Shown piece by piece: positions 20,034 to 24,854 of a stretch of 32,000 bases of DNA. Where the stretch lies: the NCBI GenBank assembly GCA_021498095.1, contig JAIZWK010000001.1:3000001-3032000 (forward strand), read 5' to 3'. The notes below the pieces were generated by a model, which did not search any database, was not told the DNA's origin, and was given only the letters and a program-made list of their open reading frames with translations. A program made the position numbers and the translations under genes. Positions within the stretch are counted from its first letter, which is position 1. Every line of letters starts with the position of its first letter. Source of the DNA: Candidatus Harpocratesius repetitus (lineage in GTDB: Archaea > Asgardarchaeota > Lokiarchaeia > Sigyniarchaeales > Promethearchaeaceae).

Positions 20034-21515
20034 TTATTCTATTTTAAATTCAAAAAGTGTATATAAAATTATAGAAATGTAAAAAATACAAACAATTATC
20101 CAAGATGATCTATTATTTTTTTCTATTTGATGAATTTTAGATGATACTGTTTCAGATTTACTAAAATAGAGTGAATTATAAATCCAAATGATACTTAAGG
20201 TTTTAAAAATAACCAATCCAATTCCAATAATCAAAATAATCCATAGAATAATAAGATCAATTGAATTTGGTAACAAATTTTGCGCTGTACTAAGCAAACT
20301 TGAATAATACATTTCAAAAAACTGGTAACCGGGAGAATTCTTAAAAAAGAACATTCCAGGAACCAATAATATAAATACTAACTCTACACTTGTCTTTTTA
20401 AATATTATTAATTTACCTACATCATTCTTATCATAAGCATTGATAATAGGTTCAAGCAAAGCAAATAAAATACTGTTTATTACAAGAGTTAGAATATAAA
20501 AGATTATTGCTGTCGTATAAAATAATGATTTAGCTTGAGCAGAAAAATAATAACCAGAAAGAATTAACAAAAATACTTGAAACTCGATTCCCGATATAAG
20601 GATTAAGATTCCTGCAAATTTTAGCCGATCTTGCGCCATCTTTTTACTATATTCTCTAATTAATTCAGCAAACAGCCATATTAAATCTATAATTGCCACT
20701 CCAAAAAAGATATATCCCAAAGTATGATCAAAACTTATAAAAATTGTTAGTAGTTGAAAAATAAATAATCCCATTAATGGGAAAAAAACCAAAGTTAATA
20801 TACCAACAGTAAAAGAAGATGAATTTACGAAATTTTTTCTAATGGATCGTGAAAATATAAAACTAAATCCAGAAAATAAACCCAAGGTTATAAAGAATCC
20901 AAAATAATTCAAATATTTTCGAATTGATGGAATGGATGTAAAACTATATGAAAGATCTTTTAAATTATAAGAAAAATAGTCAAAAGCGACCGATAATATC
21001 AGAATAATTAATAAAAAGGTAACAAAAGAAACCATTTCTCTAAATTCTTTAAAGTAAATTGGATCTTTTTTATAATCTCCTGTGAAACTGAGAAAATATA
21101 TTGAATTTAGCAAGATGATATAAGAAAGTGCAATTATAAAAATACTAGAAGATAATTCAATCAAAAGAGTCGAAATTACGATAAGCATGAACAAGAGAGA
21201 TATACTTTGATTTGAATGTGAGCGTAGGATCTGATGTTTACTCACAATATGAAGAATTAAAAAGATTGTCAAAATTATGTCAGTAATTAACCAATTCGTT
21301 GAATCTTCAGGTAAAAAAATGGTTAAAAAATCTAAAAATCGGAAAGCCGGAGAAATGAGAATTAAATTTTGCATAATTAATGCAAGAATCAAACCTGTGT
21401 TTACAAGATAAAAAGAATACTTTGGTTGATGCATAAATGGAAAGATTAACAATAAAGAAAGAAATAATATCATAATTGGTAAATTATTTAAAATAACTTC
21501 AAACATTTTTTTCAT
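20034..21515 (-). CDS. Multi-pass membrane protein; possible degenerate NuoN/MrpD-like (proton-conducting transporter fold) subunit
   Basis: About 13-14 hydrophobic segments, with helix spacing and weak local similarity to antiporter-like subunits, but lacking their conserved Glu/Lys residues. The ORF is solid; the family call is tentative. Confidence 0.5.
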   Translation of the reverse strand: MKKMFEVILNNLPIMILFLSLLLIFPFMHQPKYSFYLVNTGLILALIMQNLILISPAFRFLDFLTIFLPEDSTNWLITDIILTIFLILHIVSKHQILRSHSNQSISLLFMLIVISTLLIELSSSIFIIALSYIILLNSIYFLSFTGDYKKDPIYFKEFREMVSFVTFLLIILILSVAFDYFSYNLKDLSYSFTSIPSIRKYLNYFGFFITLGLFSGFSFIFSRSIRKNFVNSSSFTVGILTLVFFPLMGLFIFQLLTIFISFDHTLGYIFFGVAIIDLIWLFAELIREYSKKMAQDRLKFAGILILISGIEFQVFLLILSGYYFSAQAKSLFYTTAIIFYILTLVINSILFALLEPIINAYDKNDVGKLIIFKKTSVELVFILLVPGMFFFKNSPGYQFFEMYYSSLLSTAQNLLPNSIDLIILWIILIIGIGLVIFKTLSIIWIYNSLYFSKSETVSSKIHQIEKNNRSSWIIVCIFYISIILYTLFEFKIE

Positions 21516-21858
21516 CTCCTCTTTTTTTTAATTCTGGAGCTACTGCAAATTTCTCCCAAATAACAGATTCATTTTCATTAAATAACTCATTTTCTTCAAT
21601 GGTAATTAAAGAGTGAAAATTCTTGTCATTAAAGATGTTTTGGATAAAGAAGATAAAAAAAGGTAATAGAATGAATACAAAGCTATTCTGAATTAGAAAA
21701 ATAATAATCATAATTACTGTGAGAAAGAAAACGGAATGGAATAATGGTCGATATTTTCGTTTAGTTATTGAATTTAAGAAGAGAAAAATAATTCCTAAAC
21801 CCATAAAAAGATAAATATATTCTAAATTAGCAATAATAAATTCTTGAATCGATCCCAT
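21499..21858 (-). CDS. Small hypothetical membrane protein
   Basis: Two to three TM segments and a charged C-terminal tail. Overlaps the next gene by 17 bp and supplies its AGGAG SD-like site. Confidence 0.65.
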   Translation of the reverse strand: MGSIQEFIIANLEYIYLFMGLGIIFLFLNSITKRKYRPLFHSVFFLTVIMIIIFLIQNSFVFILLPFFIFFIQNIFNDKNFHSLITIEENELFNENESVIWEKFAVAPELKKRGDEKNV

Positions 21859-21887
21859 GGTACATGTTTATTTTGTCCTAAGATTTC

Positions 21888-23357
21888 TTAAAATTTTCGC
21901 ATTTCTTTAAAAAAAATTTGCTCATATGTGAGTGAAAATATTTTAAATTCTCTAAATGAGGATTTTATTTCATGATTATAAAAATCAATTAATAGAAGAT
22001 AACATTTCTTAGGATTGAAAAAATCCTTTATAAAAGAAAGTGAAGCAGATATCTCATCCAAAATAATTGAAATTGGCCGATTATCATACCATAAGCATTT
22101 ACCAATCAATAACTCTTGATTTTTTGTATTCCAAGCAACAATAGGATAATATCGAGACCTTACCCACCAGGAACCAATTTTGTCAAAATTAAACCAAGTT
22201 AAAGCCATTTTTGGAAGATATATCAAAACTTGTTCAGAAATTACGTCAACAATCTGTAAACTTAAACTTTGGTGAAGAGAATTTATAGAAAATTTATGCA
22301 TAGCAATATTACTAAAATTTGGAAAAATAAATCCAAAATAAAATTGCAAAAAAGGAACTTGAATAAAATAAAGCCCAATACGTGAATTTTTTTTTGCTAA
22401 AAGAGGTAATTCACGCTTAATAATTGAAGATTGCATCAAATTTTGAAGATATTGAGACAGATCAGAACTTTTCATATTCAATTGCAATCGTATTTCTTTC
22501 AGAGTTTTCTTATTTTGTGCAATACATGCTAAAATTTCTATATATACATTTAGATTTTTGAAATATTGTAATAAAAAGTACTCCACTTCCATTTTCCATA
22601 AAGGTGCTTGTATAGATAAATTAGAATGTAAAAACTGCCATATTGGAATCGAAATTTGGTTTAAGTACTTAGGAATTCCTCCAAATAAGGCAAATGTTAT
22701 TAGAGCTTCATCTTGTGAAATTGTTGGATGAAAAAGAAATAATTCATGTATTTTTATAGGCGATAATTGAAATTTGATTTGAGTAAACGATGATTGAGGG
22801 AAAACTTGATCTAAATACAGCCGGTTGATCGATAAACTATGAATAAATATGATTTTAATTGAAGTATTAGAAAGTAATTGGATGAAGAATTCGTTAAAAA
22901 TTTTCGAATTCAAAATATCGAATTTATCGACATTATCAATTATAATATATTGAATTTTTTTTCCTAAAGTTTTGAAAAATGGAACTTTATAAGGCTCCAA
23001 TAACTGCAAATCAGGATGAAGATAGAAGATTGATTTAAGAAAGCTATCAAACTCATCTTTTTTTCGTATATAGAAATAGAAATATGGATTATTGTTTACT
23101 ATGTTCAAAACAGAAGTCGTTTTCCCCACTTGGAAAAATCCAAATATATGAATTACAGAATAATTTGATTCTTGAATTAAATCTTTTAATTGTTGATATT
23201 GATCTGTTTCGATAAATTTCAAGGGAAAATCTTCATTTTTTTGTTTTTGGGCAATAATACTTCTTTTCTTCTTTACAACATGTTCTTTCTTTGATGTTTT
23301 CCTTTTTGTTACCATTGATGTGCTTTTTAATTTCTCTAGATCATCCAAGAAACTCAA
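21888..23357 (-). CDS. Archaeal ATPase (AAA + winged helix + DUF234/PD-(D/E)xK-like C-terminus), apparently degenerate
   Basis: Walker A GFFQVGKT, FGGIPKYL, YIEILACIA, LSQYLQNL...IIKRELP, FLQFYFGFIFP, GSWW and LLIGKCLW follow the DUF234 ATPase architecture. The TTG start overlaps the upstream stop (TTGA). Confidence 0.72.
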   Translation of the reverse strand: MSFLDDLEKLKSTSMVTKRKTSKKEHVVKKKRSIIAQKQKNEDFPLKFIETDQYQQLKDLIQESNYSVIHIFGFFQVGKTTSVLNIVNNNPYFYFYIRKKDEFDSFLKSIFYLHPDLQLLEPYKVPFFKTLGKKIQYIIIDNVDKFDILNSKIFNEFFIQLLSNTSIKIIFIHSLSINRLYLDQVFPQSSFTQIKFQLSPIKIHELFLFHPTISQDEALITFALFGGIPKYLNQISIPIWQFLHSNLSIQAPLWKMEVEYFLLQYFKNLNVYIEILACIAQNKKTLKEIRLQLNMKSSDLSQYLQNLMQSSIIKRELPLLAKKNSRIGLYFIQVPFLQFYFGFIFPNFSNIAMHKFSINSLHQSLSLQIVDVISEQVLIYLPKMALTWFNFDKIGSWWVRSRYYPIVAWNTKNQELLIGKCLWYDNRPISIILDEISASLSFIKDFFNPKKCYLLLIDFYNHEIKSSFREFKIFSLTYEQIFFKEMRKF

Positions 23358-23581
23358 CTTTTTACCACATCCTGCTCAATAAGTTTCAATAAATCTCGAT
23401 CCAATATTTCACTGGCTTTTAAAAAAGAGTCTATTGTTATTTTATTAGAATTATGTAAAAGTTGAGTCAAGCGCTCATAAAATTCATATAATTGAGCGAT
23501 ACCTTTTTTTAAGTTTCTTCCTGTTAAATTCGATTGAATCGGAACGAGTATACCTATTGTTTTCTTATCCTTTGGATTCAA
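23354..23581 (-). CDS. Small hypothetical protein (75 aa)
   Basis: TTG start preceded by an AGGTG SD-like site (23590-23594, -). The stop overlaps the ATPase start by 4 bp, suggesting translational coupling. Confidence 0.6.
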   Translation of the reverse strand: MNPKDKKTIGILVPIQSNLTGRNLKKGIAQLYEFYERLTQLLHNSNKITIDSFLKASEILDRDLLKLIEQDVVKS

Positions 23582-23589
23582 AATATCTA

Positions 23590-23612
23590 CACCTAAAAAA
23601 TATATTATAATC
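23590..23612 (-). promoter_or_regulatory. Putative TATA box (TTATAATA, about 23603-23610) and SD-like AGGTG for the 75-aa/ATPase unit
   Basis: The minus strand reads ...TACTTAAGTAGATTATAATATATTTTTTAGGTGTAGATATT-TTG. TATA assignment is weak in AT-rich DNA. Confidence 0.4.
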
Positions 23613-23725
23613 TACTTAAGTATTACTTAAGTAAACTTAAGTATATTAATCTAAGTGTTTTTTTTTTAGAAATTAGAATCTAATAAATTCCATTTACTTA
23701 AGTTAATGAAAATTATACTTAAGTA
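23613..23725. repeat. Cluster of five ACTTAAGT palindromes (three are full TACTTAAGTA); candidate operator array
   Basis: Cores start at 23614, 23625, 23635, 23696 and 23717 in the intergenic region between the PfkB kinase and the 75-aa gene. Confidence 0.85.
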
Positions 23726-23816
23726 AAAAAGAAGGAAGTATTTATATCAATTAAACAAGAAGAAAAGTAAAATATAGAATAGAAGATGATCCAGATAATA
23801 TGTGAAGAATCCTTAA

Positions 23817-24854
23817 TTAAAAAGAAGATAAGAGCTTATTTGGCTTAAATTTAAAATTCGGAACACCCAATACCTCGCATTTCTTTGATCCAAGAAAAAC
23901 AGCCAAGTTTAACGCTCGTTCTAACGAAAATGAATTAAGTATACCAAATATTATTCCTGCATTAAATGCATCTCCAGCTCCTGTAGTATCTTTAATTATT
24001 AAATTTTCAGGTGGTTTCTGAAAATAATATGTTTTTTTATCAACTAATATTGCTCCTTTCTTGCCACATTTCATGCAAAGATATCCAATATTAACAATTT
24101 TTATAAAATCATGTAAAATACGTAATTTTTCGAAAGTTGAAAGAATGAGGAATGATTTTAATGTTTTTACATTCCCTAATAAGAAAAAAAGGATTCCAAA
24201 TTCTTCTTCATTTCCCAACAATATTCTCAAAGATATTTTTTCAAATAGGGATAATAATGCATTTCTTAAATAATCTTTATTTATATCATTCAAATCATCA
24301 ACTTTCGGTAAAATACCACTAATATCCATTGAAAATAAGTGAGGTTGTATCTGTACTAGGTTTTCAAGCGTTTTTTGGGAATGATTAAAATGAATCAAGC
24401 CATTTTTAAGAAGTTTAGAATAAGACGAATCGCAAATTATTTCTGATAATTTGGAAGATACAGATGGAAATCGTTTAATTGATCGTTCACCTTGAAAATC
24501 CAATCTAATTTCGGTTCTACCTGAATTTCCTTCAAGTATTTTGATATTAGCCGCACTAATTTCTACTGATTTCAAGGCAGATATAATTTTTTCAGCCAAT
24601 TTATCAGTTCCAATTGTAGAAATGAGATTCACCTCATAATCAAGCGGATAAAGCGTATTTTTCATTAACTGAAGTAGAAAAAAACAAGTATTTGCAGCAC
24701 TCCCTCCTAAAAAAGAAACACTTTCCCCATTCGCAAGCATGTATTGATCCCAATTCAACGATCCGATACAAAAAAAAATGTTTTTCATGAAATCACGATA
24801 ATCCTGTAATTTTGTTAAAAGATTTTTAAAAACTTTTTTTATTTTATTCTTCAA
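23817..24854 (-). CDS. PfkB/ribokinase-family carbohydrate or nucleoside kinase
   Basis: IGSLNWD, LGGSAANT, GNEEE, KCGKKGA and DTTGAGDAFNAG. The real start may be ATG at 24788. Confidence 0.9.
   Translation of the reverse strand: MKNKIKKVFKNLLTKLQDYRDFMKNIFFCIGSLNWDQYMLANGESVSFLGGSAANTCFFLLQLMKNTLYPLDYEVNLISTIGTDKLAEKIISALKSVEISAANIKILEGNSGRTEIRLDFQGERSIKRFPSVSSKLSEIICDSSYSKLLKNGLIHFNHSQKTLENLVQIQPHLFSMDISGILPKVDDLNDINKDYLRNALLSLFEKISLRILLGNEEEFGILFFLLGNVKTLKSFLILSTFEKLRILHDFIKIVNIGYLCMKCGKKGAILVDKKTYYFQKPPENLIIKDTTGAGDAFNAGIIFGILNSFSLERALNLAVFLGSKKCEVLGVPNFKFKPNKLLSSF

Follow-up and report, generated by a model that had tools for sequence, protein, structure and literature searches.

A conserved, helically phased palindrome array as a candidate autorepression operator of a two-gene cassette in Candidatus Harpocratesius repetitus

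Why should five copies of one short palindrome be gathered in a single intergenic gap of a Lokiarchaeial chromosome, and which protein would recognize them? This question is raised by a locus of Candidatus Harpocratesius repetitus, whose genome comprises 4.36 Mb in one scaffold with 31% GC. The locus lies in a stretch of 32,000 nucleotides (GenBank assembly GCA_021498095.1, contig JAIZWK010000001.1, positions 3,000,001 to 3,032,000), hereafter the window. In the gap between pfkB (end at 23817) and a 75-aa ORF, ACTTAAGT occurs exactly at 23614, 23625, 23635, 23696 and 23717, with spacings of 11, 10, 61 and 21 bp, just as a preliminary description of the sequence had listed them, and three of the five copies have the full 10-mer form that it ascribed to them (at 23613, 23624 and 23716). 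By chance, 0.48 ± 0.70 copies are expected per window, and five or more were obtained in none of 100 shuffles. The copies form a proximal candidate operator cluster of three palindromic sites (23613..23643; cores 23614, 23625 and 23635), bounded by the putative TATA box on one side and the putative start site on the other, and a distal pair (23695..23725; cores 23696 and 23717, 21 bp apart) whose members are 61 and 82 bp away from the first site of that cluster. A partial copy, CTAAGT at 23651, is present as described, but it is probably not a site, since it lies 14 bp off register, is altered in the related locus L038 and is missing from another, L039.

The word itself is ordinary, whereas its clustering is not. 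Genome-wide, 50 copies of ACTTAAGT were observed against 52-57 expected under Markov models of order 4-6, i.e., no enrichment; 45 of them are singletons, and the window array is the sole cluster. When a degenerate motif with 387 genomic sites was used, pairs spaced by 9-12 or 20-23 bp were likewise found only there, so that the genome-wide count proposed in the preliminary description returned a motif that is clustered at this one array without being enriched. A genome-wide regulon was considered and rejected, given the expected motif frequency, the intergenic position of only 10 of the 45 outside copies and the lack of tandem copies among the three solo intergenic 10-mers. These solo TACTTAAGTA sites (G000:C1 positions 3372627, 3523726 and 3829512; L156-L158) are possible secondary targets or chance occurrences; the first is operator-like, with a TATA-like run immediately 5', and the second lies about 100 bp ahead of an RNase III-like gene. 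The tandem pattern was not found in 13 family genomes (74-92% completeness). On the other hand, tandem TACTTAAGTA-type arrays are also present in unrelated phage contigs with no member of the 75-aa protein family encoded nearby, so the motif by itself is not diagnostic, and motif-first scans of 87 viral and 10 genome stretches recovered no gene of this family. In five phage contigs (L074, L081, L083, L129 and L130), a conserved 83-aa ORF starting with MSKPK is preceded, at a distance of about 80 bp, by dense TACTTAAGTA arrays, and many further viral contigs have arrays of this type but no family gene. In another phage contig (L096:5192-5413; also L085), four TACTYRAGTGG-type repeats of 11 bp separate a sigma-70 -10 box from the ribosome site of a 51-aa ORF, which is RHH-like by eye and gave no Pfam RHH match. 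This ORF was rejected as a relative of the 75-aa family (no detectable relation; hhalign probability 0.2%), and its repeats are possibly a convergent operator.

The array stands at the head of a short gene series. The 75-aa ORF (23581-23354, minus strand, TTG start) is followed by a 489-aa ORF (21888..23357, minus strand) whose start overlaps its stop, and then by genes for 119-aa and 493-aa membrane proteins and phosphoglucomutase. Two elements delimit the segment of interest: upstream, a pyrimidine/oligo-T tract 3' of pfkB (23725..23738, minus strand), a likely terminator that is kept with and without the intervening genes; and downstream, a conserved AT-rich element (21883..21897, minus strand; present in G000, G002 and G001), which is the likely BRE/TATA of the 119-aa gene. 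As both edge elements are retained in G002 and G001, the array, the small gene and the ATPase gene behind it make up one cassette of about 1.8 kb. The 119-aa gene directly follows pfkB in G002, G006 and G010 and the exonuclease III gene in G001, and the motif is absent from the corresponding gaps in all four genomes. At the G001 locus (L028), pfkB is missing as well as the cassette. In G002 (L021:2478-2663), about 55 bp are left between the terminator and the 119-aa promoter after cassette loss, and TCTTTAATTA, with 3 mismatches, stands in place of the distal site, of which it is perhaps a decayed form. The 119-aa and 493-aa genes (20034-21858 of the window), neither of which has a Pfam or NCBIfam assignment above cut-off, are an older pair with its own conserved upstream element; of the 12 family genomes searched, 8 have this conserved pair, in most cases ahead of phosphoglucomutase. 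The unit under control of the array would be the two-gene cassette.

The same cassette occupies the same site in L038 (Ca. Harpocratesius sp., with dS of about 0.3-0.4 in most genes; ATPase 83% identical) and in L039 (ATPase 32% identical), and both retain the array; the nearest named homologue of the 489-aa ATPase is likewise from Ca. Harpocratesius sp. Between L038 and the window, 40 of 40 core bases are identical, including all 24 in the proximal cluster, whereas the spacers agree at 59 of 71 positions (Fisher p 0.003), and L039 has kept four sites, arranged as two tandem pairs. With this conservation, recent tandem slippage, named earlier as an observation that would count against a bound array, is not borne out and is excluded as the origin of the repeats. 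A tree from four neighbouring genes groups the genomes as ((G000,L038),G002),(L039,G001) with support of 98-100, which implies two cassette losses; ATPase divergence is in line with that of the neighbouring genes, and both cassette-loss genomes also lack the sites. On the simplest reading, the cassette would have been present in the common ancestor of these genomes and lost twice together with its palindromes. Between the window and L038, the 75-aa gene shows a synonymous divergence of 0.09 compared with 0.18-0.42 in its neighbours, which may reflect extra constraint, recent exchange or small-number noise; its dN/dS of 0.12 comes from 6 changes only.

Beyond the genus, sensitive searches with the 75-aa protein yielded ten homologues, giving a family of 11 proteins in about seven independent lineages with DNA, with 26-58% identity between lineages. 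The array accompanies all homologues with DNA, so that the conservation upstream of orthologues, a check proposed in the preliminary description, extends from L038 and L039 to distant relatives, and six further lineages bear 3-4 TACT-YR-AGTA-type sites in their own promoters. The loci L040, L041, L045/L051, L046 and L047/L050 have 3-4 sites each within 160 bp upstream: three ACTCGAGT in L040, four ACTCRAGT in L041, three ACTTAAGT in both L045 and L051, three odd-centred ACTTWAAGT in L046 and three ACYTARGT in L047/L050. The observed number of degenerate sites was matched in 0 of 2000 shuffles, with a motif that was defined after the loci had been seen and fitted, like the period, on the same loci; the window-derived 10-mer with at most 2 mismatches gave p ≤0.011 in 8 of 9 loci, the exception being L046 with its odd-centred variant. 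A search of 41 relatives and 161 class genomes returned no further regulator gene (one match at E 9e-4 contained two stops), protein-based scans of viral and genome contigs found no further family member, and the L041 element was the only match in a metagenome scan. Several homologues reside in element-like contexts: L044 has an integrase gene, and L041 has genes for HNH, glutaredoxin and HMG-box proteins. Published gene lists of Asgard elements include HNH, thioredoxin and HMG genes (bioRxiv 2021.07.29.453957). The L041/L052 contigs (29-39 kb, about 51% GC) carry, besides a possible C25-protease-like ORF, genes for glutaredoxin, HMG-box, HNH and Zn-ribbon proteins, and this set is similar to that of published Asgard mobile elements; a neighbour gene of L050 has 61-65% identity to Lokiarchaeial genomes. 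These contexts suggest a module that may have arisen in mobile elements and later captured a host-type ATPase.

Which gene the array belongs to can be read from its partners. The gene after the small gene is not an ATPase in L041, L045, L046, L047 and L051, and among 17 ATPase homologues without the small gene, none has ACTTAAGT and none has a tandem site, which assigns the array to the small gene. The 75-aa protein, which had been suggested as a possible binder, is indeed the best candidate, with sites that follow its gene across lineages.

This predicted DNA-binding protein (23354..23581, minus strand) represents a new family with the signature MNPKxKKxI and is predicted to form a homodimer that would bind the array. 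A single-sequence model was poor (pLDDT 66) and was replaced by an alignment-based monomer model (pLDDT 91) with a strand at 7-13, a loop at 14-20 and helices at 21-45, 50-57 and 62-73. The homodimer prediction reached an ipSAE of 0.87, compared with 0.01 for the best control, with pLDDT of at least 91 and at least 96% of contacts agreeing between runs; the ipSAE mark was attained by 20 of 30 solved pairs and by 1 of 23 single chains. Its predicted contacts 13-7', 12-8', 10-10' and 14-7' describe an antiparallel beta-ribbon on the two-fold axis, and 28-28', 31-31' and 38-38' a parallel helix pair behind it. Such a two-fold ribbon would be suited to palindromic DNA. Positions I9, I/L11 and V/I13 are conserved and hydrophobic, K6 and K7 do not vary within the family, residues 1-27 have a basic net charge, and the outward positions 8, 10 and 12 differ between members. 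At these three positions, the residues T-G-L occur in three lineages (G000/L038, L039 and L045/L051), all with pure (A)CTTAAGT-core sites, and four other residue sets accompany variant sites. The T-G-L rows cluster weakly in the tree (63/70), and the cases are few and partly related; the covariation of residues 8, 10 and 12 with the site sequence is thus suggestive only.

No RHH family was detected for the 11 members in Pfam or PHROGs (E up to 1), nor for four members in NCBIfam, and more generally the family had no match in Pfam, PHROGs, PDB sequences, PADLOC or NCBIfam. Foldseek against PDB and BFVD and a wide VIA-align search gave nothing above background (best Z 5.5, generic helical bundles), a result that neither proves a new fold nor excludes RHH; fold searches with the monomer likewise returned no clear match, with weak MobC-type rows only (TM 0.50-0.54). 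Considering that RHH sequences diverge strongly, the missing match weakens the proposal that the protein is a member of this class rather than the proposal that it works like one. As modelled, the protein would function in an RHH-like manner, and the layout of its sites would suit the cooperative occupation of tandem promoter subsites that is typical of RHH regulators, yet it is not classed as RHH, because there is no sequence match and the helix A region is apparently replaced by a loop. An R-M controller (C) protein with an HTH_3/XRE fold was rejected: there is no HTH_3 match and there are no adjacent R-M genes, and Atlas XRE rows of 0.91-0.92 (148-154 shared features only) were not upheld by the structure models.

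The second gene of the cassette encodes different proteins at different loci. In nine loci it overlaps the small gene or follows it after 0-2 bp, and in P0014 it lies 81 bp away. Except in P0014, the partners start with MSF- or MP(S/T)-hydrophobic-acidic residues, followed by a Lys/Pro/Glu-rich linker and then an unrelated domain; they are either unrelated proteins of 80-186 aa or a catalytically degenerate ATPase (the L040 partner sequence is truncated at 20 aa). None matches a toxin family, and the small partners could not be confirmed as SAP/HeH-like. In Harpocratesius, an N-terminal extension of about 45 aa, MSFLDD plus a Lys-rich segment, is fused to an ATPase_2/wHTH/DUF234 protein of PDC-S27-like type, with E-values to PDC-S27 of 2.8e-7 (window) and 8.6e-19 (L039 orthologue) in the domain order ATPase, wHTH, nuclease-like and a Pfam HTH_45 match in the L039 orthologue. 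The 489-aa protein lacks the Glu of Walker B, the arginine conserved in SPL(Y/F)xR and the D/ExK residues of the nuclease: compared with 12 intact homologues, DEF/DEY has become DNV, SPL(Y/F)xR is gone, and EID...ECKW/ECEW reads ...GKCLW/GRCIW. These catalytic motifs are missing from all three cassette copies, and the dN/dS of 0.24 indicates purifying selection. A second ATPase_2/DUF234 paralogue in G000 (G000:C1:70652-71947, L013) has intact catalytic motifs and no array. Taken at sequence level, these features suggest that a mobile module captured a host-type gene whose product now has a non-catalytic role; that the leader peptide of the partner docks on the regulator is a hypothesis.

The promoter layout gives the array a plausible point of action. 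In all nine aligned loci, the first proximal site has a TATA-like run directly on its 5' side, which in L046 lies 7 bp farther off. A tandem pair like that of the window, with the second site 10-11 bp on, is found in L039, L040, L041, L045, L047 and L051, and the L046 pair is spaced by 21 bp; the third proximal site occurs in G000 and L038, and one or more distal sites lie 60-81 bp upstream in L039, L040, L045, L046, L047 and L051. The L041 layout differs, with two pairs 21 bp apart flanking the TATA run. A TATA box downstream of the last site would have no space in four of seven lineages, where only 15-18 bp separate that site from the ATG; the box of the window would therefore lie, judged by position, at 23649-23642 (minus strand; TTAATATA), overlapping the first proximal site, with transcription starting near 23620 and a 5' leader of about 38 nt. 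A Shine-Dalgarno-like AGGTGT (23589..23594, minus strand), 8-13 nt before the TTG start, is consistent with this start site, and GGTG/GATTGATG-type elements occupy its position in L047, L040 and L041. The preliminary description had instead put the TATA box 2 bp from the proximal copy, on the downstream side of the last site. An AT-rich box does exist there (23603..23611, minus strand), but it is not conserved beyond G000/L038 and would mean a leaderless transcript with a TTG start, so that the conserved promoter position is assigned 5' of the proximal sites; the box may be a second, local promoter.

Spacings above 15 bp (21, 21, 21, 60, 61, 71, 71, 80 and 81) are consistent with a period of 10.1 bp (p 5e-5 against the best-period null), as are the six spacings of at least 55 bp taken separately (p 3e-4); at a 10.5-bp period, the long spacings are not significant (p 0.14). 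The usual helical period is 10.5 bp, and 10.1 lies below it. DNA loops of 60-80 bp are short and would require a bending factor.

Good support for the proposal that a dimeric DNA-binding protein uses the sites as a cooperative array comes from the only genomic cluster of the motif, its conservation and phasing, and the predicted homodimer. From the computed clustering, conservation, co-occurrence and co-loss with the gene and phasing, together with the predicted dimer and ribbon, we infer binding, repression, the TATA and start-site positions and looping. The array is, in our judgement, likely a cooperative autorepression operator that acts by promoter occlusion and is helped by its distal sites through looping, wrapping or spreading. 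One 75-aa homodimer would bind each 10-bp palindrome (TACT-YR-AGTA) through its two-fold beta-ribbon, and dimers at adjacent sites 10-11 bp apart would bind cooperatively on the same helix face. As the proximal sites would span the region from the TATA 3' edge to the start site, their occupancy would block assembly of the pre-initiation complex, and the two-gene cassette would thereby repress itself. The distal site or sites, an integral 6-8 turns upstream, would reinforce repression by promoter looping or wrapping or by seeded spreading, and a host factor or the downstream partner could add to binding.

Other readings account for part of these observations. An array that serves as a centromere-like, parC-like nucleoprotein-assembly site, at which 75-aa dimers wrap DNA and recruit the partner via its N-terminal MSF-type peptide for mobile-element inheritance, with autorepression secondary and the chromosomal copy domesticated, would explain why the repeat blocks are split by the promoter as in R1 parC (PMC5016525), why distant homologues such as L044 and L041 sit in element-like contexts, and why a translationally coupled partner always has a similar amphipathic start peptide and low-complexity linker. 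However, no copy is adjoined by a ParA or ParM motor, the partners are unrelated small proteins or a catalytically degenerate ATPase, only 3-5 sites are present compared with 8-10 or more in known centromeres, and the single array per genome was lost in two congeners; we regard this reading as unlikely. Less likely still is a type II toxin-antitoxin-like or addiction module, in which the 75-aa protein would be antitoxin and repressor and the overlapping gene a toxin or co-repressor. The small gene coming first, the 4-bp overlap, the autoregulatory phased sites, the element-like contexts and the patchy loss all resemble such modules, and conditional cooperativity is known at ccd and maz operators, but the partners have no toxin family match and are mutually unrelated past the first few residues, the chromosomal partner lacks its ATPase and nuclease residues, and the predicted fold of the 75-aa protein extends as far as the C-terminus.

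Two further readings are scarcely credible. If the wHTH of the 489-aa ATPase-nuclease were the binder and the small ORF incidental, the retention of the wHTH in a PDC-S27-like protein under purifying selection would be accounted for; sites that precede the small gene in five loci with a non-ATPase partner, and their absence from the 17 ATPase homologues, largely refute this idea. Nor does it seem at all probable that the repeats lack a dedicated binder and reflect slippage or chance in AT-rich DNA, or restriction or methylation sites (CTTAAG, CTYRAG). The contiguous run of three copies at 10-11 bp, the similar arrays of unrelated phages and a genomic count of CTTAAG slightly below expectation (614 vs 706) would suit this explanation, but the isolated distal copies lie in integral-turn phase, the sites are conserved across the diverged family and co-lost with the gene, the variants are lineage-specific and internally uniform, including the odd-centred L046, and the cassette contains no methyltransferase or restriction gene. 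A replication origin was also rejected (no cdc6 among ten neighbouring genes scanned; array lost in congeners). The autorepression operator is retained as the preferred reading. A more far-reaching version, put forward as a doubtful conjecture, would combine a new beta-ribbon/coiled-coil fold, short (6-8 turn) loop or wrap repression and an adaptor domesticated from Asgard mobile elements, on which varied cargo (a Zn-ribbon, small helical domains or the dead ATPase-nuclease) would dock via the conserved N-terminal peptide of the partner.

The literature searched contained no paper on the motif, the 75-aa family or the locus, and no mapped transcription-factor operator in Lokiarchaeia; it also described neither the protein family with its operator, nor the distal site conserved at an integral number of turns, nor the domesticated pseudoenzyme cassette. 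The regulator-operator pair comes with natural variants in which strand residues and sites appear to vary together. Its conserved distal site offers a test case for repression by looping or wrapping at an archaeal TATA promoter, a mode that is, to our knowledge, little documented, and the 10.1-bp period suggests that wrapping by histones may play a role. The locus would further document how a mobile regulatory module took over a defence-candidate gene of host type, with catalytic residues lost and selection kept.

The regulatory logic of a ribbon dimer and cooperative autorepression is already known, and its closest parallels are the archaeal viral RHH repressors F55 (SSV1), AvtR (AFV6) and SvtR (SIRV1) (PMC5569661). 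As is proposed for the window array, F55 has tandem sites of about 11 bp over the TSS/BRE and represses its own gene by promoter occlusion, and the distal high-affinity sites of AvtR and SvtR, with oligomerization over about 80-100 bp, resemble the distal sites described here (PMC5569661). A small dimer with an intersubunit beta-ribbon, predicted in the present case, and an association with mobile elements are shared with all three. In contrast to them, the 75-aa protein has no detectable sequence similarity and belongs to Asgard hosts, the short helix A-turn-helix B is replaced in the model by a 7-residue loop and a 25-residue helix parallel with its mate, and its sites, all perfect palindromes, include a distal one at an integral number of turns. 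The ParR-parC systems of R1 and pSK41 resemble the proposed operator in having repeats upstream of the operon in two blocks flanking the promoter, a dimer per repeat of about 10 bp, a promoter that is looped out and repressed, and a ribbon domain followed by extra helices, as in the predicted 75-aa model (PMC5016525), whereas the present locus has no ParM or ParA motor, fewer sites, palindromic instead of direct repeats and a chromosomal location in Harpocratesius. The Sulfolobales RHH protein aCcr1 shares an archaeal host-and-virus distribution, and its motif AGTATTA (PMC9976892) is contained in the junction of two 11-bp-spaced window sites, but the isolated distal copies identify TACT-YR-AGTA as the unit here, the window motif has no genome-wide enrichment and no homology was detected. 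Finally, compared with PADLOC PDC-S27 proteins, the cassette ATPase has lost its catalytic motifs, has gained a module-derived N-terminal extension and stands under a separate regulator.
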